Assembly (NCBI GenBank): GCA_030950365.1
Contig: JAUZRQ010000027.1
Span: 85,293-117,292, forward strand
Direction: 5' to 3'
Source: Candidatus Zhuqueibacterota bacterium
GTDB lineage: Bacteria; Zhuqueibacterota; Zhuqueibacteria; Zhuqueibacterales; Geothermadaptataceae
DNA length: 32,000 nt
Position numbers and translations under genes: made by a program
In this document: in pieces, positions 7,619 to 30,223 of the stretch
How positions within the stretch are numbered: the first letter of the stretch is position 1
Layout: each line of letters begins with the position of its first letter
The notes under the pieces: generated by a model
Databases searched by the model: none
What the model saw: only the letters and a program-made list of their open reading frames with translations
What the model was told of the DNA's origin: nothing

Positions 7619-7650
7619 CTGGTGGACAGTCAAACGTACGGAGTTTAAAC

Positions 7651-9178: not shown

Positions 9179-9200
9179 TTTATAAAAATATGCACAAATT

Positions 9201-9215: not shown

Positions 9216-9244
9216 AAAAAGTTTATTCACTTTTTATGTGAAAA

Positions 9245-9697
9245 ATGCAAGGGCAAAACATGCGCCTGGCTGTGCAACAACGTGGATTGGCTACAAACAA
9301 GGTGGAGGGAGACCATTTGCCAAATTTAGAGGTCTTTCGCATCCTCATTATCGAGAATGATTCCGTTTTTCGTCGTTCGTTGTTCAAAGCCCTCACTGGA
9401 GAAGGATACACGGTATTCGCTGCCGCCGATTTGGTTGAGGCAACTGAATTTATTTCACAGGTGACGTTTTCTCTAATTTTATACGGTCTGCGTCGGCCCT
9501 ACCAGGGGGGACTCGATCAATTAAAGCACCTGCTGCAAATCGCCAAGAATACGCAGATCATCGTGGTGACGACGTTTAACGAGCCGGAACTGAAACGCCA
9601 GGTGCTGGATATGGGGGCCAGGGATCTCATTGTCAAGCCCGTGCGCAAAGCTGCACTGCTGAATTCCGTTGCCAATGTGCTGCAGGTGCATTCCTAA
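9245..9697 (+). CDS. Single-domain receiver-like protein lacking the phospho-acceptor Asp (pseudo-receiver)
   Basis: 150 aa with CheY-like layout. The conserved T ('VVTTF') and K ('LIVKPV') are present. The 'DLxMP' position reads 'YGLRRP', with Gly81 where the Asp should be. The start could also be 9260. Confidence 0.7.
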   Translation: MQGQNMRLAVQQRGLATNKVEGDHLPNLEVFRILIIENDSVFRRSLFKALTGEGYTVFAAADLVEATEFISQVTFSLILYGLRRPYQGGLDQLKHLLQIAKNTQIIVVTTFNEPELKRQVLDMGARDLIVKPVRKAALLNSVANVLQVHS

Positions 9698-9828
9698 GTT
9701 TTAGAAAAACTTCTTAGTTTTGGGAAAAATACCTACTTTCCTATCGCGTGTATCCCTGCAAATCTTGTTCCGCCTACCTGCAATATTAACAACAGCCTAC
9801 CGCTTAGCTTCAGCATATGGCCCACTTA

Positions 9829-9843
9829 TGGTATGCATTTTGC
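9829..9843 (+). promoter_or_regulatory. Sigma54 (-24/-12) promoter candidate
   Basis: TGGTAT-gcatt-TTGC has GG and GC at the canonical 10-nt spacing. It lies 88 nt upstream of the receiver gene at 9931. Confidence 0.45.
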
Positions 9844-9930
9844 CAAATGATAATGGAGATTTATATCATTTAGATCGAAAGTCCGCGTCACCGGGCAACT
9901 GATTGAGCACGTGCAACTGGGAAAATATCA

Positions 9931-10308
9931 ATGAAAAAAATATTGATCCTGGATGATGAACCGCACCTGCGCGAATTATACCGGAAAGAATTGCAGGCCC
10001 ATGGCTATTTAGTGGCTACCGCTTCCCATTTGCATGAAGCAGAAAAGACGATTCGTGCCCAGAAGGTGGATCTGGTCATCCTGGATTTGAAGTTGGACAA
10101 TGAATTCGGGTTTGACTTTTTTCACAGCGTTTTGAGTCGCAAAAAGGATATTAAGGTCATTATCCATACGGCTTACCCGATGTTTAAAAGCGATTTTCGT
10201 TCATGGGGTGCCGATGCGTTTTTGGTGAAAAGCTCGAATGTGACCGAGCTGTTGCAAACCGTTGGTAGGTTGTTGACGCAAGCGCAAGAACCAATCCCTG
10301 CCCCTTAG
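9931..10308 (+). CDS. Single-domain response regulator (CheY-like receiver)
   Basis: 125 aa. 'ILILDDE', 'LVILDLKL' (phospho-Asp), 'IIHTAY' and 'FLVKS' are all canonical. Confidence 0.88.
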   Translation: MKKILILDDEPHLRELYRKELQAHGYLVATASHLHEAEKTIRAQKVDLVILDLKLDNEFGFDFFHSVLSRKKDIKVIIHTAYPMFKSDFRSWGADAFLVKSSNVTELLQTVGRLLTQAQEPIPAP

Positions 10309-10545
10309 GAAGCATTCTGTGTTTCGCATAACCATCGGATAGCCGAGACGAAATGCAATTTTCCTAACATCAATCCTATCGATACAAAATGGTGGAAGTA
10401 GGCGGCGATGGTGATCGTGCAAGAGTTTTATAATAGATTTAGTGATCCCAGGGCCGCACCAAAACATTCGGAAAGGACGCGCTCAAAGATCGACCAATTG
10501 TCCTGAACTCTTATTAATACAATGCGCTCACGAGGAGGCTCTACG

Positions 10546-13500: not shown

Positions 13501-14151
13501 TTCGGCGGACTGGATCATGTGCTGGCCAGCGGCCACGATGTTAATATTCTGGTGCTGGATACGGAAGTGTACTCCAACACCGGCGGGCAGACCTCCAAGG
13601 CCACGCCGCTGGGCGCCATCGCCAAATTTTCCGCCGGCGGCAAGCCGACGCCGAAAAAGGATCTTGGCCTGATCGCCATGAGCTACGGCAATGTGTATGT
13701 GGCGGCCGTGGCCATGGGCGCCAAAGATGAGCATACGCTCAAAGCCTTCCTCGAAGCCGAGGCGTATCGCGGCCCGTCGCTGATTCTGGCCTACTCGCAC
13801 TGCATTGCGCACGGCTACAACCTGCGCTATGGTTTGCAAAACCAGAAGCTGGCGGTAGATTCCGGGCAGTGGCTGCTGTATCGCTACCATCCGGAACGGG
13901 CCAGGACTGGCGAAAACCCACTGATTCTCGATTCCCGCGCGCCGAAGATTCCGATCGAAGAATATCTCATGAAAGAAACGCGCTTCAAGATGCTGACCAA
14001 GATCAATCCGGACGAAGCGAAGAAACTGTTCTCTATGGCACAGGAGAACGTGATCAAGCGGTATAATTATTACAAGTATCTCGCTTCGCTGAAACTGGAA
14101 GAGGGCAACGGCAAGCTGGAGCGCAAAAAGCTGATGACGCCTACAAAATAA
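10546..14151 (+). CDS. nifJ: Pyruvate:ferredoxin (flavodoxin) oxidoreductase, single-polypeptide PFOR
   Basis: About 1200 aa. Two ferredoxin-type 4Fe-4S motifs ('CIQCGKCAMVCP', 'CTGCALCVEVCP') and the TPP-binding region 'GGDGWAYDIGFGGLDH'. The ATG at 10546 is preceded by GAGGAGG, so the tracked ORF start at 10522 is less likely. Confidence 0.95.
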   Translation: MGKRIYKTIDGNEAVATVAFKTNEVIAIYPITPSSPMGELSDAWAAARKPNIWGTIPTVIEMQSEGGASGAVHGSLQGGALTTTFTSSQGLLLMIPNMYKIAGELTSTVFHVAARTVATHALSIFCDHSDVMATRQTGFALLASASVQEAMDFALIAQAATLEARVPFLHFFDGFRTSHEVSKIEVLTDDQMRAMLNEELIMEHRMRALSPDHPVLRGSAQNPDVFFQARETINPYYAACPDITQKAMDKFAEITGRRYRLFEYFGAPDAERVVILMASGAETAHETVEHLLNAGEKVGVLKVRLYRPFSTKHFMEALPATVKSIAVLDRTKEPGSVGEPLYLDVVNALREGLEAGLGELKDMPTVVGGRYGLSSKEFTPAMVKAVFDNLNQETPKNHFTVGIFDDVTKTSLEFDPEFSTEADDVYRALFYGLGSDGTVSANKNSIKIIGENTDFWAQGYFVYDSKKAGAVTVSHLRFGPRRIRSTYLISRANFVACHQPSFLERFDMLEHIVEGGTFLLNSPYDPDDVWDHLPREFQEHIINKKLKFYVINAFKVARESGMGGRINTVMQVCFFAISGILPREEAIAQIKQAIRDTYGRKGEEIVQMNLQAVDRALSHLHEVKVPSQITSKIHMRPPVPDQAPEFVKDVTAMMIAGKGDDLPVSKMPVDGTFPTGTAQWEKRNLALEIPVWDPDICIQCGKCAMVCPHATIRIKVYDETYLENAPATFKAVDVRDKEWKGMKYTIQVAPEDCTGCALCVEVCPARNKQEPRLKALNMEPQPPLREQEAENWDFFLSIPELDRRQIKNGTIRQQQVQQPLFEFSGACSGCGETPYVKLMSQLFGDRAIVANATGCSSIYGGNLPTTPWTVNQDGLGPAWSNSLFEDNAEFGLGIRLAVNKQKEVAEYLLKKLSTDIGQELVERILTNEQLDEPSIFEQRQYVAKLKKKLETLKSDDARRLMQLADYLVRKSVWIIGGDGWAYDIGFGGLDHVLASGHDVNILVLDTEVYSNTGGQTSKATPLGAIAKFSAGGKPTPKKDLGLIAMSYGNVYVAAVAMGAKDEHTLKAFLEAEAYRGPSLILAYSHCIAHGYNLRYGLQNQKLAVDSGQWLLYRYHPERARTGENPLILDSRAPKIPIEEYLMKETRFKMLTKINPDEAKKLFSMAQENVIKRYNYYKYLASLKLEEGNGKLERKKLMTPTK

Positions 14152-14204
14152 ACCTGCGCCTGATATTCGAGGATTGAAATGGAAAGCGATATGGAGGATC
14201 ATTT

Positions 14205-15209
14205 ATGGACCTGTCCACAACCTATCTGGGCTTAAAGCTGCGCACCCCGCTGGTGGTGTCGGCCTCACCGCTGTCGGAGGAAACGGAAAACATCAAGCGC
14301 ATGGAAGATGCCGGGGCTTCCGCCGTGGTGATGCACTCGCTCTTCGAGGAGCAGATTCGGCACGATAAGCTGGAGCTGGCGCATCATACAACATACACCA
14401 AAGACTCGTTCGCCGAGGCGCTGGATTTCTTCCCGGAACCGGAAGAGTTCAACGTGGGGCCTGAGGAATATCTCGAACACATTCGAAAGGCCAAGGAGAG
14501 CGTGAACATTCCGGTGATCGGCAGCCTCAACGGTGCCACGGTTGGCGGATGGGTGGAATACGCAAAACTCATCCAGGAAGCCGGCGCCGATGCGCTGGAG
14601 CTGAACATCTATTTCATCCCGACTAATCTGGATATGCTCGGCGCTGAAGTGGAACAAAAATACCTGGAAATTCTCAAAGCAGTCAAGACGGAAGTGAATA
14701 TTCCGGTGGCGGTGAAATTGAGTCCATTTTTCAGCAATCTAGCCAACATGGCCAAGCAACTGGTGCAGGCGGGCGCCAACGGGCTGGTTCTGTTTAACCG
14801 TTTTTACCAACCGGATCTGGATGTGGAAGAGCTCGAGATTAAGCCCAGCATCTTGTTGAGCACGCCGCAGGCGCTGCGTCTGCCCATGCGCTGGATCGCC
14901 ATCCTGTACGGCCGCATTCAGGCCGATCTGGCCGCATCCGGTGGCATCCACAAAGCCACGGATGTGATCAAAATGCTGATGGTGGGCGCGAAAGCCACCC
15001 TGCTGTGTTCCGTGTTGCTCCGCTACGGTATCGATTACATCCGGGTGATCGAGGAGGGGGTGGTTCAGTGGATGGCCGAACACGAATACGAATCCGTTGA
15101 GCAGATGCAGGGCAGTATGAGCCAGCTCAAATGCCCGGATCCGAGCGCATTCGAGCGAGCGCAGTACATGCGCGCTTTGCAAAGCTACAAACCCGCGCAT
15201 GAATTATAA
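14205..15209 (+). CDS. Dihydroorotate dehydrogenase-like TIM-barrel flavoprotein (catalytic Cys/Ser motif not conserved)
   Basis: 334 aa. Class-1 DHOD-like N-terminus 'LGLKLRTPLVVSASPL' and 'GADALELN', but the following 'SCPN' is replaced by 'IYFIPTN'. 'GGIHKATDVIKMLMVGA' resembles the FMN-phosphate loop. Confidence 0.75.
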   Translation: MDLSTTYLGLKLRTPLVVSASPLSEETENIKRMEDAGASAVVMHSLFEEQIRHDKLELAHHTTYTKDSFAEALDFFPEPEEFNVGPEEYLEHIRKAKESVNIPVIGSLNGATVGGWVEYAKLIQEAGADALELNIYFIPTNLDMLGAEVEQKYLEILKAVKTEVNIPVAVKLSPFFSNLANMAKQLVQAGANGLVLFNRFYQPDLDVEELEIKPSILLSTPQALRLPMRWIAILYGRIQADLAASGGIHKATDVIKMLMVGAKATLLCSVLLRYGIDYIRVIEEGVVQWMAEHEYESVEQMQGSMSQLKCPDPSAFERAQYMRALQSYKPAHEL

Positions 15210-15251
15210 GGCAATCTCCTAAATAGAGCCCTCCAACCTCCCGCAGTTTAA

Positions 15252-15283
15252 CCTGCCGGGCAAGACGCTCGGCAGGTTTTTTT
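15252..15283 (+). terminator. Rho-independent terminator after the PFOR/DHOD-like pair
   Basis: Stem cctgccg (15252-15258) pairs with cggcagg (15270-15276), followed by a T7 run. Confidence 0.75.
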
Positions 15284-15583
15284 GGTTTTTCCCAAGAATA
15301 AAAATCTTCCATTGAAATTCTCAATCTTGCGATTTAATGGAATTTATGAATTATTTCATAAAGCGCTTTTGCTTTGTATAAGCTTTTAAAAAATAATAAA
15401 TAGCCTGCAGCTAAATAAATCGAAAAATTGGAATAATTATTGCGTTAACTATAAGTGGAAATGATGAAACTGCCATTTTGCCAGTACTGTGATAACGGAT
15501 ATGCCGGTTTATTTCCATTGAGTTATATAAGTGACATGGCTTAATTAATCCAGGTGCTTGATAGAGAAAGCAGAAAGTGAGGA

Positions 15584-16255
15584 ATGGTCATGAGAGCAAA
15601 GAAAAATCCAAAATATGATTTGCGATATCAGTATCGCAAATCCTTGGAATTGGGAATGGTTGGCGCCTTACTTATTGTCACTTCCTCGTTTTACATTTTT
15701 CGAGGAGACTATGAATATAAATTGAAGGTTGACGTTCCTGAAATCAAGATAGAAGTGGAAGATATCCCACCAACCGAACAAATTCGCCGACCGGCGCCCC
15801 CGGCCAGACCGGCTGTGCCGATACCGACCGAGGAAGAAGACGTGCCGGAAGATGAAACTATTGAAGAAACCACCGAGCTGAACCTGGCCGAGTTGCCACC
15901 GCCTCCGCCGCCACCGGAAGACAATCTGAGCGATGAAAGCTATCAATTCGTGCCGTACGACGAGCCTCCGGTGATGATCGGAGGGATGGAAGCGCTGCTG
16001 CGCTTGCTGGAATATCCGGAGCTTGCGCGCAAAGCCGGTATTGAAGGCACCGTGGTCATTGGCGTACTGGTGGATGAAAGAGGCAACACGGTCAAAGCTC
16101 AAGTGCTGAAGAGCGATGCGACCAAACTGGGATTCGAAGAGGCGGCGATCAAGGCGCTGATGCAGATGAAATGGAAACCCGCTAAACAGCGCGATAAACC
16201 GGTCAAGGTGTGGATTTCGGTGCCAGTACGATTCAAGCTGAGTGATGTAAGCTGA
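15584..16255 (+). CDS. tonB: Energy transducer TonB
   Basis: 223 aa. N-terminal TM helix, Pro/Glu-rich spacer including 'PPPPPPP', and a TonB C-terminal domain ('GIEGTVVIGVLVDERGNTVKAQVLKS...KWKPAKQRDKPVKVWISVPVRFKL'). The start may be 15590. Confidence 0.85.
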   Translation: MVMRAKKNPKYDLRYQYRKSLELGMVGALLIVTSSFYIFRGDYEYKLKVDVPEIKIEVEDIPPTEQIRRPAPPARPAVPIPTEEEDVPEDETIEETTELNLAELPPPPPPPEDNLSDESYQFVPYDEPPVMIGGMEALLRLLEYPELARKAGIEGTVVIGVLVDERGNTVKAQVLKSDATKLGFEEAAIKALMQMKWKPAKQRDKPVKVWISVPVRFKLSDVS

Positions 16256-16415
16256 CGCAAGGCAATGGGGGGATCGGTTTGTTGATTCGGAGAAGGGAGA
16301 GACTGCCTGTTGCTGAGAGAGAAATAAAAAAGGATTGATTGTGATATCAAAATCATTAAATTTGCAGGCAGAGAATCTTGCTGAAATCATAGAGTCAAGC
16401 AAAGGAGGCCATTCG

Positions 16416-17324
16416 ATGTGGAAACCTCGTAAAATCCTGGTGCCCACGGATTTTTCCCGGGATGCGAATCGCGCTGTATATTACGCAGCGTATCTATCCG
16501 AACCGTATAAGAGCGAAGTGATTTTGCTGCATGTGGTTTCGTTATTCGAGCACGATCCCAATAATCCTCAACATCATTTTCCCAATATTGACGAAGTGTA
16601 TCGCTCGCTGGAAAATATCGCCTCGGAACAGATGGATCAAATTCATCAAAAGCATTCGCAAATTAATATCCGCAAAGAAACGGTCCGTGGCGTTTCACCT
16701 GCGGAAGAGATTATTAACTATGCTAATGAGAATCAAGTTGATCTTATTGTCATGGGCACGCATGGCCGGTCGGGCCTGAGTCATTTTCTGCTCGGTAGCG
16801 TGGCGGAGAAGGTCATTCGCCACATGCACTGCCCGGTAATGACCATCCGCTATGCGCATGGTGATTCCGGCAATATTCCGCGCTTGAAGCGCATCGTGGT
16901 GCCTATTGATTTCTCCGCTTATTCCAAACAGGCACTGAAGCATGGCATCGAGCTAGCCAATCGCTTTGGGGCCAGTATCGAGTTTGTGCATGTCATCGAA
17001 GAACAGGTGCATCCATCGTACTATATTACGGGCGATACGTCGATATTCAAGCTGATTCCGGATTTGCGAGAGCGCTCCATCGCGGCCATGAAAGAATTTG
17101 TGGAAAAGGACATCCCGGATGGTATCGAACACACGTTTCATGTTCGTGAAGGGAGGGCGCATACCGAAATCGTGAAATTTGCTGAGGAGCAGGATGCGGA
17201 TTTGATTGTCATCGCCACGCATGGGCTGAGCGGGCTGGACTATCTGCTGCTTGGCTCCACCACCGAAAAGGTGGTCCGACGGTCGAAAACCCCGGTGCTG
17301 TCCATTCGCGCCGAAATGATGTAG
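16416..17324 (+). CDS. Tandem universal stress protein (two UspA domains)
   Basis: 'KILVPTDFS...LIVMGTHGRSGLSHFLLGSVAEKVIRHMHCPVMTI' is repeated as 'RIVVPIDFS...LIVIATHGLSGLDYLLLGSTTEKVVRRSKTPVLSI'. The ATG at 16416 follows AAGGAGG, so the tracked start at 16335 is unlikely. Confidence 0.9.
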   Translation: MWKPRKILVPTDFSRDANRAVYYAAYLSEPYKSEVILLHVVSLFEHDPNNPQHHFPNIDEVYRSLENIASEQMDQIHQKHSQINIRKETVRGVSPAEEIINYANENQVDLIVMGTHGRSGLSHFLLGSVAEKVIRHMHCPVMTIRYAHGDSGNIPRLKRIVVPIDFSAYSKQALKHGIELANRFGASIEFVHVIEEQVHPSYYITGDTSIFKLIPDLRERSIAAMKEFVEKDIPDGIEHTFHVREGRAHTEIVKFAEEQDADLIVIATHGLSGLDYLLLGSTTEKVVRRSKTPVLSIRAEMM

Positions 17325-18013: not shown

Positions 18014-20332
18014 TCAATCCACAGTCTTGCTATCACCCTGGCGAAATTCCAGTAGCCGAAGGGCCGCTTCCTTGCCGTGCTCGCCCACTTCCAGCACCGG
18101 ACCGACGCAGCTCGGACAGCCGGTCTCACATCGGCAATGGCGGATGACATCCGCAGCAGCTTTCAACAAATCATCGTGGCAGTCAAACAGTTTCTGTGAA
18201 AAACCCACGCCTCCAGGATAGCGTTCGTAAATGTACACCGTAGGCAGATCTGCAAACGGGCTGCGGACCATAGGCAGGGTGATGATGTCGCCCGGATCGG
18301 CCATGATGAAAATGGGCGCGACGTGGCCGAGCACATTGGCCGCGGCCTTGAGCGCATCGCCCAGCTCATCCTGCGAAAGCTGTAACACTTCACGGATGTC
18401 CGCATCCAGCTCCCACCAGTAAGCCGACGTCTGCAGCTCCATTTCGGGAAGTTCAATGGGGCCCCAACCGATGTTTTCATGCGTGCGGAATCGGATTTTC
18501 TTGTACATGGTCGGAACGGTGGTGACGCTGACCTCGCCATGTGCCTTGCCCCCCCCCGGAACATCTTCATGCTGAAACACATCCAGCACTTTCAGGCTGG
18601 ACTTGATCTGGGCGTCGGTGTAATAGTCGGATTCTACGCGGTGCACATAGGCCTTTTTTCGTAGCCAGTCCAACCGATCCACGTGATACGTTTCAGTACC
18701 GTGCATGTAGATGGCATCCTGATGCACATAGAGGGGAGCGCTGGCCAGATCGATCTCGCCGATGACCCGTTCTTCGCCTGTACGATCAATGATGACCACG
18801 TTTTCGGTGCTGGCGCTGCGCAGGGATACCGCCTCGGCGGGGTAGGTCTCGGCCATCCAGTGCCATTTGCCATCGGCGAAGTGCAGCACGCCTTTTTCCT
18901 CCAGGTATTCGAGAATTTCCTGAGTGGCATCCACGACGAAATCACCGTAGCCGAATTTTTCATTTTCTACAAATGGCAGTTCGAACGCGGCGCATTTGAT
19001 GTGGCTCATCATGATCAGCAGATTGTTGGGGTCAATCATGGCCGATTCCGGAGCCCGTCCGAAAAAGAAATCCGGATGGTTGATGATGTACTGATCCAGC
19101 GGTGAAGAGGAGGCCACCAGCACGGCGACCGAAGTTTCGGTCTTGCGCCCTGCGCGGCCTGCCTGCTGCCAGGCACTGGCGATGGTGCCCGGGTAGCCGC
19201 TCAGCACGCACGCCTGCAACTGCCCGATGTCGATGCCCAGTTCCAAGGCGTTGGTGCTGACCACCCCCAGTAGTTCTCCGGCTCGCAATCCCTTTTCGAT
19301 TTCCCGGCGCTCGCCGGGCAAATAACCGCCGCGGTAGCCCTTGACGCGGCCCCGCAGTTTTGCATTGCGACGCACGGCCTCCTGCAGATATTTGCTCAGC
19401 AGCTCCACGCGGTTGCGCGAACGTGCAAAAACGATGGTTTGTACGCCTGCATTCAGAAAGCGCTGGGCAATTTTCTGGCTTTCCTTGACGCTGCTGGCAC
19501 GGATGCCCAGTTCCATATTCACCACAGGCGGGTTATAGAAAATGAAGTGTTTCTCGCCGCGTGGCGCGCCGTTGTCATCCACCAGTTCGACCGGCGCTTC
19601 GATCAGTTTTTCAGCCAGCTCTCTGGGATTGGCCACCGTGGCGCTGCAGCAGATGAACTGCGGCTTGCTGCCGTAAAAATCGCACACGCGCCGCAAACGC
19701 CGTAGGACGTTAGCCAGATGGCTGCCGAACACCCCGCGGTAATGGTGTATTTCGTCGATGACGATGTAATTCAGGTTCTCGAATAGTTTGATCCAGAGCG
19801 TGTGGTGAGGAAGAATGCCCTGATGCAGCATATCCGGATTGGTGACCACGATGTGTCCGACGGTGCGGATGGCTTTGCGCGCGGACTGTGGCGTGTCGCC
19901 GTCGAAGGTGAAGACCTTGATGTCGCAGCCCATGTCCGTTACAATTTCGTGCACCTCGTGCATCTGGTCCTGCGACAGTGCTTTGGTTGGGAACAGATAC
20001 AGCGCGCGGCTTTCGGGTTGCGTTAGAATGCGGTTGAGCACCGGGATGTTGTAACACAGGGTTTTGCCAGACGCGGTGGGGGTGACCACTACCACGTTTT
20101 TGCCGGACAGCGTGTGCTCGATGGCCTGCGACTGATGCGAATAGAGCTGCCGGATGCCGCGTTTTTCCAGCGCCTGCCGCAGCTCCGGCTGCATGTTGGC
20201 GGGAAACGGGCCATAGCGTGCGGGCCGAGCCGCCATGTGCTCCCAGTGTGTAACATTTCGCATAAACGCCGGATCGCGGCGCAGCGCATCGAGAATATCG
20301 GGCAATTCGATGTTGGGTTTCAGAACGGACAT
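18014..20332 (-). CDS. DEAD/DEAH-box helicase with C-terminal DUF1998-type Cys4 domain (YprA/MrfA-like DNA-repair helicase)
   Basis: Motif I 'TPTASGKTLCYN', motif II 'VIDEIHHYRG', motif VI 'QQAGRAGR', C-terminal 'CRCETGCPSCV'. The likely start is 'MSVLKPN' at 20332 rather than the tracked 20383. Confidence 0.88.
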   Translation of the reverse strand: MSVLKPNIELPDILDALRRDPAFMRNVTHWEHMAARPARYGPFPANMQPELRQALEKRGIRQLYSHQSQAIEHTLSGKNVVVVTPTASGKTLCYNIPVLNRILTQPESRALYLFPTKALSQDQMHEVHEIVTDMGCDIKVFTFDGDTPQSARKAIRTVGHIVVTNPDMLHQGILPHHTLWIKLFENLNYIVIDEIHHYRGVFGSHLANVLRRLRRVCDFYGSKPQFICCSATVANPRELAEKLIEAPVELVDDNGAPRGEKHFIFYNPPVVNMELGIRASSVKESQKIAQRFLNAGVQTIVFARSRNRVELLSKYLQEAVRRNAKLRGRVKGYRGGYLPGERREIEKGLRAGELLGVVSTNALELGIDIGQLQACVLSGYPGTIASAWQQAGRAGRKTETSVAVLVASSSPLDQYIINHPDFFFGRAPESAMIDPNNLLIMMSHIKCAAFELPFVENEKFGYGDFVVDATQEILEYLEEKGVLHFADGKWHWMAETYPAEAVSLRSASTENVVIIDRTGEERVIGEIDLASAPLYVHQDAIYMHGTETYHVDRLDWLRKKAYVHRVESDYYTDAQIKSSLKVLDVFQHEDVPGGGKAHGEVSVTTVPTMYKKIRFRTHENIGWGPIELPEMELQTSAYWWELDADIREVLQLSQDELGDALKAAANVLGHVAPIFIMADPGDIITLPMVRSPFADLPTVYIYERYPGGVGFSQKLFDCHDDLLKAAADVIRHCRCETGCPSCVGPVLEVGEHGKEAALRLLEFRQGDSKTVD

Positions 20333-20426
20333 GGGATTTCCTGTGCAGATTTTGTTGGCAAAATATAGCCAATCTACCTGCATGGGGCAAGGGGTAAGTT
20401 ACCTATTTGCAATTCGCCGCGATTCC

Positions 20427-20766: not shown

Positions 20767-22590
20767 ATGCAATTTGGGTTCAGGACGACGGCACGACACC
20801 TCTTCATCCCCGTATTGACTTTCGCGCTCAGCTTGCCATTTGCCGGGCTCAGCCAGGAAATGGCTCAGCTTAGCCGTATCGAAGAGCTGGAAAAGTCCAT
20901 GGAGGCGAACCTCACCTGGAATTTGGAAAACGCTCTCCTGATGTATTACCCCGAAAACAAATTCGTCGTCAAAGCCAATGTGGAGCTCGTGCCCGTCAAA
21001 GTACAAAACGAGCTGCCGAAGCTGCCGGAAGCGCTGTTGAATCGCGAAGTCAACCATTTGCCGGGGCTCCCGTTTCTTCCGGACGCCAATACGCCGCAGA
21101 GCGCCAACCCCGAGGTGCAGTCCTCGCTGGCGCGCCAGGTAAAAGAACAGCGGTTGGCCCTGAAGCGAGCCTGGGTGAACGTGCTGCTGGATGAAAATTT
21201 CACCGACAGCGATGTGCGCTTCATCCGCCGGCTGGTAGCGCTGACTGCAGATCTCGATCCGCGGCGCGGCGATCAGGTCAAAGTGGAACGGATGGCCTTT
21301 CCGCTGCAGGAAGTACCTGTGGAAGAGCGGACTCTGGCGGAGGAGCCTTCCGTGAAACCCGAAACCACACCGACCAATGCTAAAGCTTCATCCTCGTGGC
21401 TGCCCTGGGCGATTTTGGCCGGCGCATTGCTCCTGTTTTTGCTCCTGTTTGTGTGGAGCATGCGCAAGCTCGTCAGAGCACTGAGCGATGGCTTGAGACC
21501 GCTGCAGCATTTGCATATGCCGCATCCCGCGGTGAAGCCGACTTCAGCAGCAGCCGCCGAAGTCGTGCAGCAGTTCAAAGAAGAGAAGCAGGATGAACAG
21601 GTGCAAAAACTCAAGTCCGAGGTTATCGATGCCATAGTCGGCACACCGGCCATGGCCGCCCGGCTGTTTCAAACCTGGATTCAACACCACGGGGATCGCG
21701 GCTATGAAGAGGTGGCACTCCTCATGCTGGCCACCTCGCGATCGCTGATCGACCTGCTGGCGCCGTATCTAGGACCGGAGGCCGCCGGCAACGTACAGTT
21801 GAAAATGGATCAGCTGACGCAGGAGCAGCTCGAACAGCAGCAGGAGGCCGTGCTGGAGCGCTTTGATCGCGAGCTGCGCCATTACGCCCTGCGCGTGCGC
21901 GCCAGGCAGGAGGAGGAAGACGCGCTGGCCTTCCTCTACAAAATGTCCGACGATCAGTTGTTGCACCTGATCAAGCCGCTGAAAAAAGGCATCAAAGCGA
22001 TTGTGCTGGCACAGTTGCGGCCCGAGAAGGCAGCCAAAATACTGCGCACCTTCGATGCGGAGACCCGCCGCGGCGTTCTGGCCGCGATGGGCAATATTCA
22101 AAACATCCCGGCGGATGTGTACCAGCACATCGCGCGGCAACTGGCCGGCCGGGCGCAGAAACTGGAGCACATGCGCTTCGTGAAGGCCGATGGCGTCGAA
22201 GCCCTCGTCGAGGTGCTGGATCAGCTCGATGAACAGACGCAAATCGATACGCTGCAGCATCTGCAAACGCAGGATGTGGAGTTGGCCAAACGCGTGCGTT
22301 CGCGCTTTCTCACCTTTGACGATCTGCTGGATATGCCGGAAGACAAACTGCGCGATCTGGCCATTCAGGTGGACCGCGAACTTCTGGCCAAGTCCCTGAC
22401 TACTGTGGACGAGGCCGCGGCCGAAAAGATCATTCGGGCGCTGCCCGAGAAACTGGCCGAAATGGTGCGCGCCAGCCTCGAAACCCTGCATGATGTACCC
22501 GAGGCTGAGGTTGTGCAGGCACGCCGCGAATTGCTGCGCACCGCACGCGATCTGTTTCAAAAAAGCGAAACCAATCTGAAAGATGAGTAG
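20767..22590 (+). CDS. FliF-like ring-building periplasmic domain + TM + full-length FliG-like cytoplasmic domain (fusion-type rotor protein)
   Basis: 607 aa. N-terminal signal/TM segment. aa 35-180 show an alpha-beta-beta-alpha-beta ring-building-motif pattern as in FliF/SctJ. TM at aa 211-230. aa 310-600 align by eye to FliG N, M and C domains ('RPEKAAKILRTFDAETRRGVLAAM', 'FLTFDDLLDMPEDKLRDL', 'EKLAEMVRASLE...VPEAEVVQARRELL'). Confidence 0.7.
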   Translation: MQFGFRTTARHLFIPVLTFALSLPFAGLSQEMAQLSRIEELEKSMEANLTWNLENALLMYYPENKFVVKANVELVPVKVQNELPKLPEALLNREVNHLPGLPFLPDANTPQSANPEVQSSLARQVKEQRLALKRAWVNVLLDENFTDSDVRFIRRLVALTADLDPRRGDQVKVERMAFPLQEVPVEERTLAEEPSVKPETTPTNAKASSSWLPWAILAGALLLFLLLFVWSMRKLVRALSDGLRPLQHLHMPHPAVKPTSAAAAEVVQQFKEEKQDEQVQKLKSEVIDAIVGTPAMAARLFQTWIQHHGDRGYEEVALLMLATSRSLIDLLAPYLGPEAAGNVQLKMDQLTQEQLEQQQEAVLERFDRELRHYALRVRARQEEEDALAFLYKMSDDQLLHLIKPLKKGIKAIVLAQLRPEKAAKILRTFDAETRRGVLAAMGNIQNIPADVYQHIARQLAGRAQKLEHMRFVKADGVEALVEVLDQLDEQTQIDTLQHLQTQDVELAKRVRSRFLTFDDLLDMPEDKLRDLAIQVDRELLAKSLTTVDEAAAEKIIRALPEKLAEMVRASLETLHDVPEAEVVQARRELLRTARDLFQKSETNLKDE

Positions 22591-22593
22591 GCG

Positions 22594-23733
22594 ATGGCGA
22601 AAATGAAAGCAAAATGGACGTGGCCGTTCATCGGCCTCTGGCTGGTATTTGGGACGTTTGCCGTGCGGGGGCAAACGCCCGAGCAATTGGACCGAAATGC
22701 CGTGATACTCGGGCTGATGGAAGACCTGCTGGAAAAAGTGCAACCCGCCATTCAGGCAATCGATCCGGAACTAAAGCGCATTGCGCTGTACCGGCTCACG
22801 GTGCAGGGCAGGGGTTTGACACCACCGCTGCGGGATCACTTCGAAAACCGGCTGATTGAAACCCTGCAAACCCTGGATCATCCCCGTGTGGTGTCGCTGC
22901 CCAAATTCAACAACCTGCGTATCACCTCGACCGACAGCTCGTTCATGATCATCAACGCGCTACCGACCCCGGATGAGCTCTGGCGGGTGGGCCGGCGGTT
23001 GCGCGTGGATGCCTTTTTGGAAGGCAAACTGTCCTATCTGCCCGGCAACGGCCTGATTCTCGACTTGCGCCTCAACCGTACCGGGACGAATGAAGTGCTA
23101 TGGGCGGAATCGTTCGAGGCCTATGAGAAGCCGCTCGAGCCGCTACCCAAAAATCCGTTCCAGGTCAGCTTCAACATGGGCGTGGAAACCTTCCCGGTGG
23201 ATATCGACAAGGCCTCGCGTTCATTGCTGCGGCAGGATTTTCAGGATCAAATTTATCATTACAGCTTTTACCTTGGTTTTCGCCAGAACCTGTGGGAAGC
23301 CTCGAAATTCCGGTATGAATTTCAGGTCGGGGCCTCGTTGCTTTCCGAGGGCATTAAACTGGATAGCACCTACTTTGAAGAGGATGCGTTCTACGGTCAA
23401 AAAAGCGACAAAGCTTCCTCATTGCCCATCGCTTATTTCATCCGGTCGCTGTTAGCGATCAAACTGATTGAAAATGAGGGCAATGTTGGCGGCGATTGGC
23501 TGTCGCTGACCCTCGGTTTCGCACGCTATTTCGCCAAAAACATGCCCGATTTCAACACGATTTCTATCGGGTTACGGTCGGATATCAGTCCGCATTTTTC
23601 GCTGTCCTCGGGGTTCTCGCTGGCGTTCGGCCAGGAGTTCGAATCGGTGCCGGTTTCATCGACCGGCCAGCCTATTCGGATCAAAATTTCCGGCATTTCC
23701 ATGAACATCTTTTTCTTGCAATACACGTTCTAA
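22594..23733 (+). CDS. Secreted protein: periplasmic alpha/beta domain (CsgG/LpoB/FlgO-like pattern) plus putative C-terminal outer-membrane beta-barrel
   Basis: 379 aa. Signal peptide 'WPFIGLWLVFGTFAVRGQ'. Pattern 'RIALYRL...VGRRLRVDAFLEGKLSYL...LILDLRLNRTGTNEVLWAESF'. The C-terminal half has alternating hydrophobic strands and ends '...FFLQYTF' (terminal Phe, OMP signature). Confidence 0.6.
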   Translation: MAKMKAKWTWPFIGLWLVFGTFAVRGQTPEQLDRNAVILGLMEDLLEKVQPAIQAIDPELKRIALYRLTVQGRGLTPPLRDHFENRLIETLQTLDHPRVVSLPKFNNLRITSTDSSFMIINALPTPDELWRVGRRLRVDAFLEGKLSYLPGNGLILDLRLNRTGTNEVLWAESFEAYEKPLEPLPKNPFQVSFNMGVETFPVDIDKASRSLLRQDFQDQIYHYSFYLGFRQNLWEASKFRYEFQVGASLLSEGIKLDSTYFEEDAFYGQKSDKASSLPIAYFIRSLLAIKLIENEGNVGGDWLSLTLGFARYFAKNMPDFNTISIGLRSDISPHFSLSSGFSLAFGQEFESVPVSSTGQPIRIKISGISMNIFFLQYTF

Positions 23734-24467
23734 TGCCTAATGCAATGACCATGACTCAACTCAGTGAAAGAGCGATGATGAGACGATCCATTTCCAAAAG
23801 CCGTTTTCTCGCAGGCATTGTAGCTGGCGCTGTGCTGGCCGGCATGGGCTGCAGCAGCAGCGCTAGAAAGGAGATTCGCAAGGAGCCGGGCACGCTGCTA
23901 CCGGCGTTGACGATAACCGACTCCCTGAAAGCCAAAGGCGGCGAGGTGGTAACTCAGCTCAAGGGCAAAGATGAATCGTTCAAAAAGGTCATCACCTATC
24001 CGTATCTGACGATCCGCTTTAAGCAGGAAGATACCGAGGTAGAGATGGTCCTCGACCCTATGAGCACGAACCTGGTGCTGGATTTGAAACGGTCCTCCAG
24101 ATGGGAATGGGAAGTGCTCGAGGGCGATTCGGCGCTGACGCGCAACCGCATGCCGACACCGCCCGACAGCCTGAACGATAAAATTTACCCCCTCAAAGAC
24201 GAATCCCTACAGGACCTGACCGATGAGATCGTACGCGATATCAACCTGGCGCAGCAACTGTTTTATCAGCGGCGCTACGAGGAAGCGTTGCGCATCTTGA
24301 ACCAATCGCTGCAAAAAAAGCCCACGGCAGCGGCTTATGCGCTGGGCGGTTCGATTTATTTTGTCAATGGCGATATTGACCAGGCGGTTCGTGCCTGGGA
24401 AAACGCGTTGAAAATCGATCCCGGTCTGGATGATGTGAAACGACTGGTGGCCCGTTACAAAAAATAG
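23733..24467 (+). CDS. TPR-repeat lipoprotein
   Basis: The TAATG start overlaps the previous stop; alternative starts at 23775/23778 give the signal 'MMRRSISKSRFLAGIVAGAVLAGMGC' with a lipobox Cys. C-terminal TPR region 'YQRRYEEALRILNQSLQKKPTAAAYALGGSIYFVNGDIDQAVRAWENALKIDP'. The tracked ORF start at 23496 overlaps the upstream gene and is rejected. Confidence 0.7.
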   Translation: MPNAMTMTQLSERAMMRRSISKSRFLAGIVAGAVLAGMGCSSSARKEIRKEPGTLLPALTITDSLKAKGGEVVTQLKGKDESFKKVITYPYLTIRFKQEDTEVEMVLDPMSTNLVLDLKRSSRWEWEVLEGDSALTRNRMPTPPDSLNDKIYPLKDESLQDLTDEIVRDINLAQQLFYQRRYEEALRILNQSLQKKPTAAAYALGGSIYFVNGDIDQAVRAWENALKIDPGLDDVKRLVARYKK

Positions 24468-24482
24468 CAGTGAGGTGAATCG

Positions 24483-25301
24483 GTGGGTACGTTTATCGGC
24501 ATATTACTGGGTGCGGCGTTGATTGCCATTGGCATTGCCTCGGGACAGGCGCCGGCGAATGTTTTCTGGAATTGGCAGGGCATGGCCATTGTATTGGGGG
24601 GCACCATCGCCTCCACGCTCATTTCCTATCCGTTGCCCGAAGTGTTTCGCGGATTTCGTTCCTTCTTCGTGATTTTCCGTTCCGGTGCGCACAATCTCGT
24701 GGATGCGGTGAATCGGCTGGTCTCGGCGACTCGTATTTTTCACCGCGAAGGCGTCGCCGCGACGGCACAGCATGCCGCTGGCTGGAAAGATTTGTGGATA
24801 TTCAAAGACGGTTTGCAACTTATGATCAATGGCTATACGCGCGAAGAAACGAAAGAAATTTTAGAAGACCAGGTGCGCTGGCAGCTCAGCCGCGAGCACA
24901 AGCAGGAAGGCCTGTTCAACCGCATGGCGAAAATTGCGCCGGCGTTTGGTATGGTGGGCACCCTCATCGGGCTCATCAATATGCTGATCACGCTTCAGGC
25001 GCATCCGCAGCAGGTGGGAGAGGGGCTGGCCATTGCGCTTACCACCACATTCTACGGCCTGATTCTCGCCAATCTGCTGTTTTCGCCGATCGCAGCGAAA
25101 ATCCGCGAGCGGGCGGAAAACAATGTGTTGCTGCAGACCATGCAGATTGAAACGATTTTGATGATGTACGAAAAGCGCAATTATGTGTTTGTGCGTGAAA
25201 AGCTGGCGGCGTATTTAAATGCCGGACTGAGAAAGAAAGTTCAGCAAACGGCTGGTGTTCAGGCCGTATCCGCACCCCCTAATGTTAAAAAGGCAGCGTG
25301 A
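24483..25301 (+). CDS. motA: MotA/PomA-type stator channel protein (MotA/TolQ/ExbB family)
   Basis: 272 aa, four TM segments with a long TM2-TM3 cytoplasmic loop. 'IAPAFGMVGTLIGLI' and 'ALTTTFYGLILANLLFSPIA' match the MotA TM3/TM4 signatures. Confidence 0.85.
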   Translation: MGTFIGILLGAALIAIGIASGQAPANVFWNWQGMAIVLGGTIASTLISYPLPEVFRGFRSFFVIFRSGAHNLVDAVNRLVSATRIFHREGVAATAQHAAGWKDLWIFKDGLQLMINGYTREETKEILEDQVRWQLSREHKQEGLFNRMAKIAPAFGMVGTLIGLINMLITLQAHPQQVGEGLAIALTTTFYGLILANLLFSPIAAKIRERAENNVLLQTMQIETILMMYEKRNYVFVREKLAAYLNAGLRKKVQQTAGVQAVSAPPNVKKAA

Positions 25302-25304
25302 TAA

Positions 25305-25946
25305 ATGGAAATCGGATTACCCAAATATCTTCGGCGGACCGAGCGCGAGGTGGAAAGCGAGCCCTGGTTGATGTCGTATTCCGACATGACCACCCTGCTG
25401 CTGGCGTTTTTCGTACTGTTTTTTGCCATCTCGCAGCTCGATCAGACCAAGTTCGAAATGATCATGGAGTATTTCAGCAAGACAGAAACCATGCCCCTGC
25501 ATCAGCTTGAGAAAAAATTCAAGCAGTTCATTGAAGAACATCGATTACAGGATAGTATGGAGGCGGAGCTAACACCGAAAGGTCTGTTGGTGCATTTTCA
25601 GGATAAAATTCTGTTCGATTCGGGCAAGGCCGAACTCAAGCCCGAAGCCTATCCAGTGCTCGATGCCCTGGCGCAACTGCTGCGTCAGCCCGAAGTGCAG
25701 CAACGCAAAATCGAGGTGGAAGGCCACACCGATACCGTGCCCATCAGCAAAAACGCCGATTATCCGTCGAACTGGGAACTGTCGGCGGCTCGCGCTACGC
25801 GCGTGATTCGCTACCTCATCGAGCAAAACATCGCTCCGAACCGGTTTGTGGCCGTGGGCTATGCGGATACGCGGCTGCGCGTTCCAGAGAGCGACGGCCA
25901 CCGCGGACTGCCGGTGAATCGCCGCGTGAGCTTGTTGATCAAGTAG
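25305..25946 (+). CDS. motB: MotB-type stator protein with OmpA-like peptidoglycan-binding domain
   Basis: 213 aa. 'WLMSYSDMTTLLLAFFVLFF' carries the conserved channel Asp. OmpA-like region 'FDSGKAEL...VEGHTDTVPI...NWELSAARATRV...NRRVSLLI'. Confidence 0.88.
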   Translation: MEIGLPKYLRRTEREVESEPWLMSYSDMTTLLLAFFVLFFAISQLDQTKFEMIMEYFSKTETMPLHQLEKKFKQFIEEHRLQDSMEAELTPKGLLVHFQDKILFDSGKAELKPEAYPVLDALAQLLRQPEVQQRKIEVEGHTDTVPISKNADYPSNWELSAARATRVIRYLIEQNIAPNRFVAVGYADTRLRVPESDGHRGLPVNRRVSLLIK

Positions 25947-27977: not shown

Positions 27978-30125
27978 CTATTTCAGCAGCAACAATTTAC
28001 GCGTTTGCCGATACGGTGCGGCCGTCAGGCGATACAAATAAAGGCCGCTCGCAAGATTGCCGGCCTCCAGCTTAATGCGGTAGTGACCTACTGGCTGCCA
28101 CCGATGCAGAAGGCGCCGAATCCGTCTACCGGTCACATCCAGAAGATCGAGGGTGACTTCGGTATTCCGTGGCAGGCTGTATTCGATCCAGGTGTTGCGG
28201 TTGAACGGATTTGGGTAATTCGGGTAAAGGTAAAAAACATTCGGCTGGTCTGGCGAGGCCTCGGCCACAGCCACAGGGGTGTCATTGATAAATAAATACT
28301 GATAAGGGCCTGCAGGATATAGCGAAACCAGAAGATCGGCATCGCCATCGCTATCGATATCCACCAGAAAGGGCTGTGGGCGGTTTTCGTCCGGCCGGAG
28401 ATCGGGGTGCGTCACATGCTCCGGAACCTGATTGGGAATCGACTGCCATGAAGGCGATCCGGACGTGCCAACATTCTGATAATAGCGAAGCTCGCCACCC
28501 ACGAATCCCACCAGCATATCCGGCAGGCCATCGCGGCTGAGATCACCGAAACCGATGCCGGAGACGCGCCCGGAAAAGTCCGGTAGCAGCCAGTCGGGGC
28601 GCTCGACCCAAGCGATGCGATCGCCCTGCTGGCGCTGTTCAAAGAACACGAATCCGGTGCGCACGCTGTCCGGTGAAACGGTGACGGACCGCTCCAGCAG
28701 CAGATCCAGATCGCCGTCACCGTCCATATCTACCGGTTCCGGATGGCGGTAGGTGGTATCCGTTCCGGCGTTGATGCGGTTAAAGCGCGCAAAAAAGTGT
28801 TCACTGCGATCGATCCATGCGCTGGTATCCGCCATCTGATCTGGAAATTCCAGAACGAAAAACCGGACAAACGGTTGATTCAAAAGCACCATCAGGAAAG
28901 AGCCGATGAGCTCCTGACGGCCATCGCTGTCCATATCAGCCACCCGGGCATGGAGCTGATCCGGCAGGCCCGACGACAGTGGCATGAAAAAGCTGTTCCG
29001 GAGTTGCCAGAATGGGAGATCGAGCCATTCGGTTTGCCGATATAGGTTCAATTCAAGAAAACCGCGATCTGAACGAATTCCCTGCCGGATCAGGAGCATT
29101 TCCGCACGGCCATCGCCTTCTAAATCGAACGGCAGCCATGCTTGCGCAATCCTGGATTGCAAATTCACGGAGTAGTAATGCGGATCAAACCAGAGGGAGT
29201 CGGCGCGCGCACGGAATAGGCGCAATCCGTTCAGATCGGTAAGATCGGTGCGGCCATCACCATCGATGTCAAACGCGCCCAGCAGGTGATAGCGGTACCA
29301 GCCAGGAAAATCAATGAGACCGGGCGTTTCCTGCCAGCGGATGCCGCTGCTATCGCGCATGGCAAAGAAAACGATCAGACGATTTTGTACATCGTCCAAT
29401 TCCACAACCGCGATGTCTTTTAAGCCGTCGTAATTGACATCGATGAAAATAGGGGAATGGACGGCGCGTCCGCTGATGGCCCTTAGCACCGGCTGGATAA
29501 ACGAATTGTTCTTTTGCCATACCGGATGTCTCGCCGTACCTGTATTCTCGAAATAAGCGAATGATATTCCAGAGAAACCGAACCGCGGTCCCATCAGGGC
29601 ATCGAGATCGCCGTCGCGATCCGCATCGGCAAAGGACAGCACCGTGTTCTCGATGGCGTCCGGCACATCCAGACCGGCAACCAGCGCGGTATCGGCATAC
29701 CATTGGCCATTATGATCCCGCGTGACCGCGATCAGCCGCGGTGGTGTATGTGCCTTGCGCTCATAGGTGATCCAATCAAGCCAGGTATCGCCGTTTAAAT
29801 CGGCCAGCGAGACCCAACTCGTGTACAGAAAGGGCAGAAGCGCTTCTGCCAGCGAGTCACTGGAGGTCCATCCAGTAGCGGTTTTAACAAAGATATGCAG
29901 CCGGCAGCAGATGTCATAATCGAAGTTGAGGCTGATCATATCGGTTTTGCCGTTATGATCGATGTCGCCCCAGGTCCAGTACATATACGGAGCCAACGGC
30001 AATTCGAATGGATTGAAAAATGCGGGATCGAATTGCCATTTGAGATTCTGGCAGTACACCCGGGTATGATTCATGGCGGCGCATGCAAGAAAAGCCCAAA
30101 GAATGACCCAAAAGCCTTTTCGCAT
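27978..30125 (-). CDS. FG-GAP/VCBS-repeat protein with T9SS (Por) C-terminal sorting domain
   Basis: Multiple DxDxDG calcium-binding loops ('DADRDGDLD', 'DIDGDGRTD', 'DMDGDGDLD', 'DIDSDGDAD'). C-terminus 'YPNYPNPFNRNTWIEYSL...VTLDLLDVTGRRI...ASGLYLYRL...RKLLLLK'. The likely start is 'MRKGFWVILW' at 30125. Confidence 0.85.
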   Translation of the reverse strand: MRKGFWVILWAFLACAAMNHTRVYCQNLKWQFDPAFFNPFELPLAPYMYWTWGDIDHNGKTDMISLNFDYDICCRLHIFVKTATGWTSSDSLAEALLPFLYTSWVSLADLNGDTWLDWITYERKAHTPPRLIAVTRDHNGQWYADTALVAGLDVPDAIENTVLSFADADRDGDLDALMGPRFGFSGISFAYFENTGTARHPVWQKNNSFIQPVLRAISGRAVHSPIFIDVNYDGLKDIAVVELDDVQNRLIVFFAMRDSSGIRWQETPGLIDFPGWYRYHLLGAFDIDGDGRTDLTDLNGLRLFRARADSLWFDPHYYSVNLQSRIAQAWLPFDLEGDGRAEMLLIRQGIRSDRGFLELNLYRQTEWLDLPFWQLRNSFFMPLSSGLPDQLHARVADMDSDGRQELIGSFLMVLLNQPFVRFFVLEFPDQMADTSAWIDRSEHFFARFNRINAGTDTTYRHPEPVDMDGDGDLDLLLERSVTVSPDSVRTGFVFFEQRQQGDRIAWVERPDWLLPDFSGRVSGIGFGDLSRDGLPDMLVGFVGGELRYYQNVGTSGSPSWQSIPNQVPEHVTHPDLRPDENRPQPFLVDIDSDGDADLLVSLYPAGPYQYLFINDTPVAVAEASPDQPNVFYLYPNYPNPFNRNTWIEYSLPRNTEVTLDLLDVTGRRIRRLLHRWQPVGHYRIKLEAGNLASGLYLYRLTAAPYRQTRKLLLLK

Positions 30126-30223
30126 GGCCCATTCTCCCAAATGATTTCAACAAGGCGGCCTTGACGCGGGGAAGCTGGTTGATTGCAGTGGCTGGCAAAT
30201 GAGACGCGGACGGGCTTGAGCGA

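Follow-up and report, generated by a model that had tools for sequence, protein, structure and literature searches.

To my knowledge, FliG and the flagellar-type stator MotAB are understood only as parts of the flagellum. Here I describe a cassette of five genes (labeled g1 to g5) that encodes both, found at positions 20767–25946 of a 32,000-nucleotide stretch of DNA from a Candidatus Zhuqueibacterota bacterium (assembly GCA_030950365.1, contig JAUZRQ010000027.1, positions 85,293 to 117,292; this whole stretch is hereafter referred to as the window). The five products are a FliF/FliG fusion, an outer-membrane barrel protein, a tetratricopeptide repeat (TPR) lipoprotein, MotA and MotB. I consider it fairly probable that these genes form a self-contained operon, encoding a rotor-stator machine that is made of flagellar-motor parts but independent of the flagellum. 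The cassette is conserved in several phyla, including in genomes without a flagellum, and therefore probably powers an envelope function. Full-text literature searches returned no published description of it. A preprint on flagellar loss reported that, among species lacking motility, 11% have rotor proteins without filament proteins, and asked whether these have another function (10.1101/2024.12.05.626484). A 2025 phylogeny of MotAB separates flagellar from generic ion transporters (PMC12505986), and in the available part of that article no mention of a FliG-fusion neighbour of MotAB was found. MotB relatives have also been noted in non-flagellate "Sphingobacteria" lacking MotA (Cavalier-Smith, 2006; PMC1586193), but this is not the cassette described here.

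Compared with the core of the flagellar motor, the rotor candidate g1 keeps the order and topology of FliF-TM2-FliG fusions, engineered or natural. A cleavable signal peptide, with an A-Q junction that I take to be typical of the Fibrobacteres-Chlorobi-Bacteroidetes group, is followed by a periplasmic domain similar to the third ring-building motif (RBM3) of FliF, a single transmembrane (TM) helix, and FliG-like N, M and C cytoplasmic domains. It follows from this predicted topology that the N terminus would be periplasmic and the C terminus cytoplasmic. In Pfam, g1 matches YscJ_FliF_C with 30.7 bits (cut-off 23.8; residues 116–178, covering only the C-terminal part of the model), FliG_M with 39.6 bits (residues 397–466) and FliG_C with 65.1 bits (residues 498–599), the latter two also above cut-off. 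The NCBIfam FliG equivalog TIGR00207 is matched over its M and C part only, with 90.6 bits, below its cut-off of 226.7 bits. The best sequence match in the PDB is 8z4d, an engineered Vibrio FliF-FliG fusion, and homologues of g1 are named "FliG C-terminal domain-containing protein" or "flagellar motor switch protein FliG" in the databases. Unlike FliF, with its two-TM RBM1-RBM2-RBM3 plan, the g1 model has one RBM3-like domain and one TM helix, and g1 gives no match to PF01514 (YscJ_FliF) in Pfam; the first TM helix, RBM1 and RBM2 of FliF are missing, and a cleaved signal peptide is found instead.

A structural model of g1 was generated with AlphaFold on the basis of 38 full-length homologues (predicted local distance difference test, pLDDT, of 73). 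In this model the periplasmic domain has the topology alpha-beta-(insert)-beta-alpha-beta, and Foldseek aligns it to the FliF S-ring/RBM3 chains 8z5v_A, 8z4d, 7d84 and 6sd3 (probability 1.0, TM-score by target 0.5–0.62). The insert is a proline-rich segment of 42 residues (77–118), disordered in the monomer model, and located where FliF has its beta-collar. It includes the motif LPGLP (L98, P99, G100, L101, P102), which is invariant in the alignment, as are R167, G168 and D169. After the TM helix, the model continues with a helical region and then the FliG M and C domains. The TM region aligns weakly to the end of FliF RBM3 plus TM2, and the cytoplasmic half aligns with full-length FliG (9n49_G and 8umx_B, E 1e-9). 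The FliG_C domain superposes at 1.4–1.9 Å on 1qc7, and on the MotAB-bound FliG_C 8ucs_H. While the MFxF-type hinge (F514, T516, F517) and the armadillo domains are retained, the FliM-binding EHPQR motif is absent; L405-K406-K407-G408 is present instead, as LK(K)G family-wide, inside a near-invariant H-L-x-K-P-L-K-x-G stretch.

The stator genes likewise resemble those of the flagellum. The g4 product matches the Pfam family MotA_ExbB (PF01618) with 89.5 bits, and its best NCBIfam matches are MotP, PomA and MotA, all below the equivalog cut-offs (the best with 155.8 bits, against a cut-off of 394). Its best matches in the PDB are Clostridium MotA (6ysf, 1.8e-34) and PomA (2e-25), with TolQ only at 1e-3. 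It possesses the large cytoplasmic domain of MotA and the channel prolines P153 and P202. In the g5 product, a TM helix with the channel aspartate D27 is accompanied by a plug helix and by an OmpA-like domain for peptidoglycan binding, which has an N-x-x-L-S-x-x-R-A motif; the protein matches MotB_plug (62.7 bits) and OmpA (73.7 bits) in Pfam, and MotS, MotD and MotB in NCBIfam. In a MotA tree whose flagellar members all come from the window's phylum, the 26 flagellar sequences form one clade (Shimodaira-Hasegawa-like approximate likelihood ratio test support 97), and all 21 cassette MotAs fall outside it.

The residues of the rotor-stator interface vary between lineages. In the torque helix of g1, K562 occupies the position of E. 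coli FliG R281, whereas the acidic pair D288/D289 is replaced by A569-S570, invariant across the KSB1/Calditrichota clade to which the window belongs; one helical turn earlier, E565 is invariant. On the stator side, H87/R88 and A95 of g4 are found at the positions of E. coli MotA R90 and E98. The E98 position is variable in the cassette clade, with a glutamate in four of the loci (L060, L061, L071 and L072). In the Elusimicrobiota cassettes, the FliG side has an arginine together with D-E or D-G, and the MotA side retains a lysine and a glutamate. Judged from these residues, the interface is recognisably flagellar in some lineages, and remodelled in the window's clade. The charge-pair model of E. 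coli can therefore be carried over less simply, while leaving room for a rotor-stator contact.

The two remaining genes give no sequence-level match to FlgO, MotX or MotY in Pfam and NCBIfam. g2 has a signal peptide, and its AlphaFold model (pLDDT 78.6) shows a periplasmic alpha/beta domain (residues 29–177) and an eight-stranded beta-barrel (residues 190–378). No Pfam family was identified for this protein, including no match to FlgO (PF17680) at E up to 1. Its last residue is a phenylalanine in 14 of the 16 aligned homologues, and a leucine in the other two. With its signal peptide, eight antiparallel strands and C-terminal aromatic residue, g2 fits the description of a small outer-membrane barrel. 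The barrel is similar to the TM domain of OmpA, to Ail and to NspA in the PDB, and to OMP_b-brl in the ESM Atlas. The N-terminal domain is similar to LpoB (4q6l, TM-score 0.66) and to the N domain of TolB in the PDB, and to predicted structures of the FlgO family in the ESM Atlas (TM-score 0.53–0.54 over 123–135 residues), this fold being common to LpoB, CsgG and TolB-N. Both LpoB and TolB have roles in processes of the envelope and of peptidoglycan. The g3 product matches TPR_1/TPR_2 in Pfam, with C-terminal TPR repeats at residues 164–244; it also possesses a conserved beta-rich module in its middle (residues about 88–120), and a lipobox cysteine that is invariant in the alignment. Its only look-alikes in the ESM Atlas are generic TPR clusters. 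A complex prediction for the g1 periplasmic domain, the g2 N domain and g3 gave a score of 0.01, which is no answer and is used neither way. Taken together, the five products are what a sequence-only reading of the window had named: a protein related to FliF and FliG, an outer-membrane barrel protein, a TPR lipoprotein, and a MotA/MotB stator with a channel aspartate and an OmpA-like domain.

I next consider how widely these five genes occur together. About 38 full-length homologues of g1 were found, with 42–91% identity, in metagenome-assembled genomes (MAGs) labelled KSB1, Calditrichaeota and Calditrichaceae. The order g1 to g5 is the same in more than 25 loci. It is kept in 15 of the 15 KSB1/Calditrichota genome loci that are sufficiently long, and likewise in further metagenome contigs, while the flanks of the cassette change from locus to locus. 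A profile search with g2 yielded 120 cluster representatives, and genomic context was examined for six distant relatives, one of them on a contig too short. The five contexts that could be judged (L071–L075) all lie in the same cassette, made up of a FliG fusion of about 610–620 aa, a gene similar to g2, a middle protein in which TPR is not always detectable, MotA and MotB. Some of these distant cassettes come from MAGs labelled Elusimicrobiota (HCJ66681.1, contig of 642 kb) or Fibrobacteria (MEO6097173.1). A search seeded with the distant g1 proteins added 48 proteins of 600–645 aa, two of which (L111 and L112, on contigs of 3.85 Mb and 2.39 Mb) again lie in the cassette. Counted over the distant contexts, the order is kept in 8 of 8. 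Widening the protein search by means of a mixed alignment gave the set already obtained with a single sequence, because FliG-like words saturate the candidate list. Clusters in the ESM Atlas suggest that the cassette may also occur in Balneolota, Bacteroidota, Bdellovibrionota and Pseudomonadota.

All five genes are under purifying selection: against a relative of 80% identity, the ratio of nonsynonymous to synonymous substitution rates (dN/dS) is 0.14 for g1, 0.046 for g2, 0.144 for g3, 0.035 for g4 and 0.038 for g5. Dozens of columns are invariant in the g1, g2 and g3 alignments, lineage-specific motifs included. In several phyla, all five open reading frames (ORFs) are intact, with g1 identities ranging between 25% and 91%. 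The shared gene order and the low dN/dS values together go far beyond chance.

In order to relate the cassette to the flagellum, 167 species genomes of the window's phylum were scanned, and carriers were identified by the g1 periplasmic domain. Every carrier is a MAG or a metagenome contig, and the absence of flagellar genes is judged on assemblies that are 82–99% complete. g1 is present in 23 of the 167 genomes, and FlhA in 60; there are 45 FlhA-positive genomes without the cassette. Nine of the 23 carriers are FlhA-negative (working labels G055, G059, G060, G063, G066, G119, G125, G135 and G136). In eight of these nine no FliP is found either, and the cassette gene is the only FliG_C match; seven of the eight also have no flagellin match, with only a weak partial match in G125. 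G060 keeps a flagellar FliG and MotA, and is therefore treated as ambiguous. In the four genomes checked for it (G055, G059, G125 and G136), MotB_plug is matched by the cassette protein only. All five ORFs are intact in six non-flagellate genomes (G055, G059, G063, G066, G125 and G136; 94–99% complete). The cassette thus persists without flagellar genes, and export gate, rod, hook and filament are missing not only from the cassette but from several whole genomes. The sequence-only reading had asked whether the five genes are conserved as a unit in genomes lacking flagellar genes. The unit is conserved across MAGs labelled KSB1/Calditrichota, Elusimicrobiota and Fibrobacteria, and it is intact in the non-flagellate genomes of the window's phylum listed above.

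It could be argued that the cassette is the non-functional remnant of a second, decayed flagellar system, since its parts are otherwise known only from flagella, and the distribution of FlhA given above indicates that flagellar loss is frequent in the phylum. An example of such loss is provided by G066, where the sole trace of FlhA is a fragment with two in-frame stops (G066:C30:22181-22618), with no match to FliP or flagellin, yet the cassette (L058) remains intact, as if the flagellum had decayed and the cassette had been kept. The intact ORFs over a wide range of identities and phyla, the low dN/dS values (0.035–0.144), the invariant columns and the lack, judged by sequence, of a flagellar counterpart for two of the five genes all speak against a remnant, which I regard as very unlikely.

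The genome from which the window originates (4.98 Mb, 95% complete; the window is on contig C57) is itself flagellated. A conventional cluster is located on a separate contig, C1, at about 20.5–84 kb, and includes a FliG of 338 aa, MotA, MotB, FlhA and two proteins with a Flagellin_N domain (flagellin and a likely FlgL). These copies are canonical, with EHPQ and a torque helix R...EE...R in FliG, and R-R-E-G...L-E in MotA. The cassette had been called an orphan in the sequence-only reading, and this is true of the window only, because the organism is flagellated. The cassette genes are not its sole fliF, fliG and motAB copies: the C1 cluster has its own FliG, MotA and MotB, so that the cassette comes on top of these as a paralogous set. 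This genome also encodes a third protein of the MotA/ExbB family, which is divergent and 319 aa long (PF01618, 51 bits; C72:45537-48866). It lies immediately upstream of a protein of 289 aa that carries a CHU_C type IX sorting domain, and a search for its MotB_plug partner identified none.

A flagellated source is also compatible with a role as a set of flagellar accessories, in which g4 and g5 would be an alternative stator, g2 and g3 its own scaffold, and g1 a membrane-tethered FliG decoy that parks or regulates the real stators. The scaffold would then be analogous to MotX/MotY, to FlgO/FlgP/FlgT or to PflA/PflB. The motors of Campylobacter and Vibrio have TPR scaffolds, and the cassette recalls these H-ring, T-ring and Pfl systems by a g2 N domain whose predicted fold resembles that of FlgO, and by a TPR protein, g3, encoded next to stator genes. 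The cassette is moreover commoner among FlhA-positive genomes. In contrast to those scaffolds, g2 carries its own eight-stranded barrel, and the cassette proteins occur without a flagellum, being intact in at least six genomes (those listed above) that lack FlhA, FliP, flagellin and any other FliG, with no other MotB in the four checked. In addition, the cassette is never found inside a flagellar cluster, the cluster has its own MotAB, and the cassette MotAs are not sisters of the resident flagellar ones. I therefore consider an accessory role unlikely, although conceivable for the flagellate carriers.

The main rival explanation is a force transducer of the Tol-Pal or ExbBD-TonB kind, in which MotAB pulls on or remodels g1, and g1 relays the energy across the periplasm to g2 and g3, no large ring being kept in rotation; it might serve, for instance, to tether the outer membrane, to maintain the homeostasis of lipids or lipoproteins, or to control cell-wall synthesis. 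As in these systems, an inner-membrane unit, ion-driven and of the 5:2 type, has outer-membrane proteins and lipoproteins for partners; the periplasmic domain of g2 has a TolB-N/LpoB fold, g3 is a TPR lipoprotein, and MotB has an OmpA-like domain. The altered torque-helix charges in the window's clade, and the absence of an axle and of an export gate, are also consistent with this explanation. The A subunit, however, is of the flagellar MotA type with a large cytoplasmic torque domain, and not TolQ- or ExbB-like. There is no spanning protein of the TolA/TonB type and no beta-propeller, but a FliG/FliF-like ring protein instead, which retains FliG N/M/C, the MFxF hinge and the RBM3 ring-building fold. 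In known systems, these elements serve ring assembly and torque reception. The force transducer appears doubtful on this evidence. As for an identity with Tol-Pal itself, it was rejected: g2 has only the TolB N-domain fold in common with it, the match of MotA to TolQ is weak, and neither a propeller nor TolA is present.

Returning to a rotor-stator machine that works independently of the flagellum, its parts can be arranged as follows. g1 would be exported, its signal peptide cleaved, and the protein set in the inner membrane in the predicted orientation. Its RBM3-like and FliG-like armadillo domains may then build a ring, by analogy with the flagellar FliF-FliG fusions. The MotA5B2 complex of g4 and g5 would be held to peptidoglycan by the OmpA-like domain of MotB, with ions passing Asp27; and, going by homology to the flagellar motor, the rotating MotA pentamer would push the torque helix of the g1 FliG_C domain. 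Since the cassette encodes neither FliM nor FliN, and the EHPQR site is lost, such a machine would have no chemotactic switch. In place of a rod and export gate, the invariant proline-rich loop, on the periplasmic face of the putative ring, could couple it to the outer-membrane module formed by g2 and g3. Candidates for the cellular output are surface or outer-membrane processes such as the movement of surface proteins, envelope remodelling or secretion.

Several points weigh against this proposal. Ring formation, the contact between rotor and stator, and the contact with g2 and g3 are all inferred, and rotation or force transduction in the cassette is postulated from homology. The canonical electrostatic pairs are not kept in the window's clade, with an invariant Ala-Ser in g1 and, in the window itself, alanine and histidine at the E98 and R90 positions of g4. 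The cassette is commoner in flagellate genomes, since 14 of the 23 carriers possess FlhA, against 45 of the 144 non-carriers, although these genomes are related and not independent. A single origin of the cassette MotAs receives a support of only 11 in the tree. Finally, G119 (93% complete) possesses a g1-like gene without adjoining g2 to g5, and no MotB_plug match genome-wide, and relatives of g1 may therefore exist without a stator. This gene (L059, corresponding to G119:C155:1-12000, gene at 1519-3393) encodes 624 aa with 25% identity and the same FliF_C/FliG domains, and is located next to an aminotransferase and NACHT/HEAT proteins.

More tentatively, the cassette might represent a new class of bacterial rotary nanomachine, present in several phyla, in which an axle-less FliF/FliG ring is driven by MotAB, is served by a dedicated outer-membrane complex and has a role other than swimming; I see this as possible rather than probable. 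Since it corresponds exactly to the torque-generating core without the type III export apparatus, the cassette could be a relative of a pre-flagellar motor that has survived, or else an exaptation of such a motor that dates very far back. Should it work without an export gate, rod, hook and filament, it would be a second, independent use of the flagellar torque generator. It would therefore bear on how the motor of the flagellum arose, notably whether a rotor-stator core can be useful without a secretion apparatus, and on the reason why non-motile species hold rotor proteins (10.1101/2024.12.05.626484). It would, if true, show from nature what use "half a motor" can be, provide a minimal five-protein system for the study of torque generation, and be a candidate for an envelope function in poorly studied phyla (KSB1/Calditrichota, Elusimicrobiota, Fibrobacterota).

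Ion-driven stator homologues are also used outside the flagellum by GldLM and by the AglRQS-Glt system of Myxococcus gliding, which share with the cassette the presence of outer-membrane barrels and TPR lipoproteins. These systems have no FliG-like rotor, whereas the cassette shows no homology to GldL/GldM, or to Glt beyond generic TPR. It could nonetheless be proposed that the cassette powers gliding motility or the type IX secretion system (T9SS) in lineages where GldL and GldM are not recognisable. The source genome does hold the T9SS translocon SprA (C77:10365-16208) and T9SS-sorted proteins, and no match was obtained to GldL and GldM models (GldM across the phylum; GldM_1st and GldL in the source genome only), although these searches had no positive control, and do not show absence. 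It may be that the T9SS motor in this phylum has diverged too far to be recognised by current models. A T9SS-sorted FG-GAP protein is also found near the cassette, both here and in G059, but T9SS neighbours are not conserved across loci, and the cassette also occurs in MAGs labelled Elusimicrobiota. SprA is near-universal, in 163 of the 167 genomes, while the cassette is patchy, and the latter therefore cannot be the general T9SS motor. The broader proposal of a gliding or T9SS motor is in my view quite unlikely. The argument of the sequence-only reading that the window stems from a lineage whose surface motor is GldLM, made from the T9SS-sorted protein, is not supported by these data.

The anti-phage system Zorya (ZorAB) is a further case of a MotAB homologue outside motility. 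The cassette has no partners of the ZorC/D/E type, and PADLOC returned no ZorA match for g4 and nothing for g2 or g3, with g5 recognised only as a generic ZorB/MotB; a Zorya identity was rejected on this basis. With a MotA-like A subunit, no ZorA match, and carriers in which FlhA, FliP and flagellin are missing along with any second FliG, the data support the earlier suggestion of a machine distinct from the flagellum, from Tol/Ton and from Zorya.

The coordinates of the five ORFs, which fill the cassette on the same strand, are listed in Table 1 with those of the features discussed above. Between g1 and g2 the spacer is 3 nt, g2 and g3 overlap at TAATG, and the spacers that follow, up to g5, are of 15 nt and 3 nt, as described in the sequence-only reading. 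What is less firm is the start of g3 at the TAATG. Two candidate start codons are present, the ATG at 23733, overlapping the g2 stop, and the ATG at 23775; in the closest relative with a gene call (L110), g3 is called from the equivalent of the latter (MMRRS...), so that the former is possible but not secured. A consensus scan around the cassette revealed no sigma-70-like promoter, and no terminator above shuffled background. The operon status therefore rests on spacing, common strand and conservation.

Table 1. Positions of the cassette genes, their domains and two flanking genes in the window.
Feature	Position	Strand	Description
g1	20767-22590	+	607 aa, rotor candidate
g1 periplasmic RBM3-like domain	20842..21300	+	residues 26-178; from model secondary structure and Foldseek
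g1 TM helix	21397..21465	+	residues about 211-233; hydrophobic stretch, model helix 212-241
g1 FliG-like N, M and C domains	21604..22584	+	residues about 280-606; from Pfam, alignment and Foldseek
g2	22594-23733	+	379 aa, outer-membrane protein
g3	23733-24467	+	244 aa, TPR lipoprotein; start possibly 23775
g3 lipobox Cys40	23850-23852	+	numbered from 23733; invariant in alignment
g4	24483-25301	+	272 aa, GTG start, flagellar-type MotA
g5	25305-25946	+	213 aa, MotB
DEAD/MrfA-type helicase	18014-20383	-	upstream, divergent from cassette
FG-GAP repeat protein with T9SS C-terminal sorting domain	27978-30140	-	downstream of cassette

Genes on the opposite strand border the cassette at both ends. 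The neighbours recognised in the sequence-only reading, a repair helicase and a CDGSH/ArsR pair, are present, the former upstream and the latter downstream; YdjC and the T9SS-sorted FG-GAP protein come after the pair. None of the genes flanking the cassette in the window recurs beside it elsewhere, except for the FG-GAP/T9SS protein in one other genome, and isolated matches to the sorting domain. In that genome (G059), the protein is encoded just downstream of the cassette (L018 13223-15241, - strand). This neighbour may be due to chance, because these genomes hold many T9SS substrates.

In other loci the neighbours are different, and several are signalling genes. CsgG is found at L016 6249-7175, a CHASE2 Ser/Thr kinase, accompanied by a PP2C phosphatase and an FHA protein, at L071 832-4964, and a MerR regulator and a GGDEF protein at L072 4841-5125 and 11031-12053; none recurs between lineages. 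Further upstream in the window (10522-17324) are unrelated housekeeping genes, including a 1209-aa pyruvate:ferredoxin oxidoreductase and a dihydroorotate-dehydrogenase-like protein, along with a protein that has a TonB C-terminal domain (15584-16255) and a tandem universal stress protein. The G+C content of the window is 0.43–0.51 at 5001-10000 and 15001-17000, against 0.54–0.60 elsewhere.

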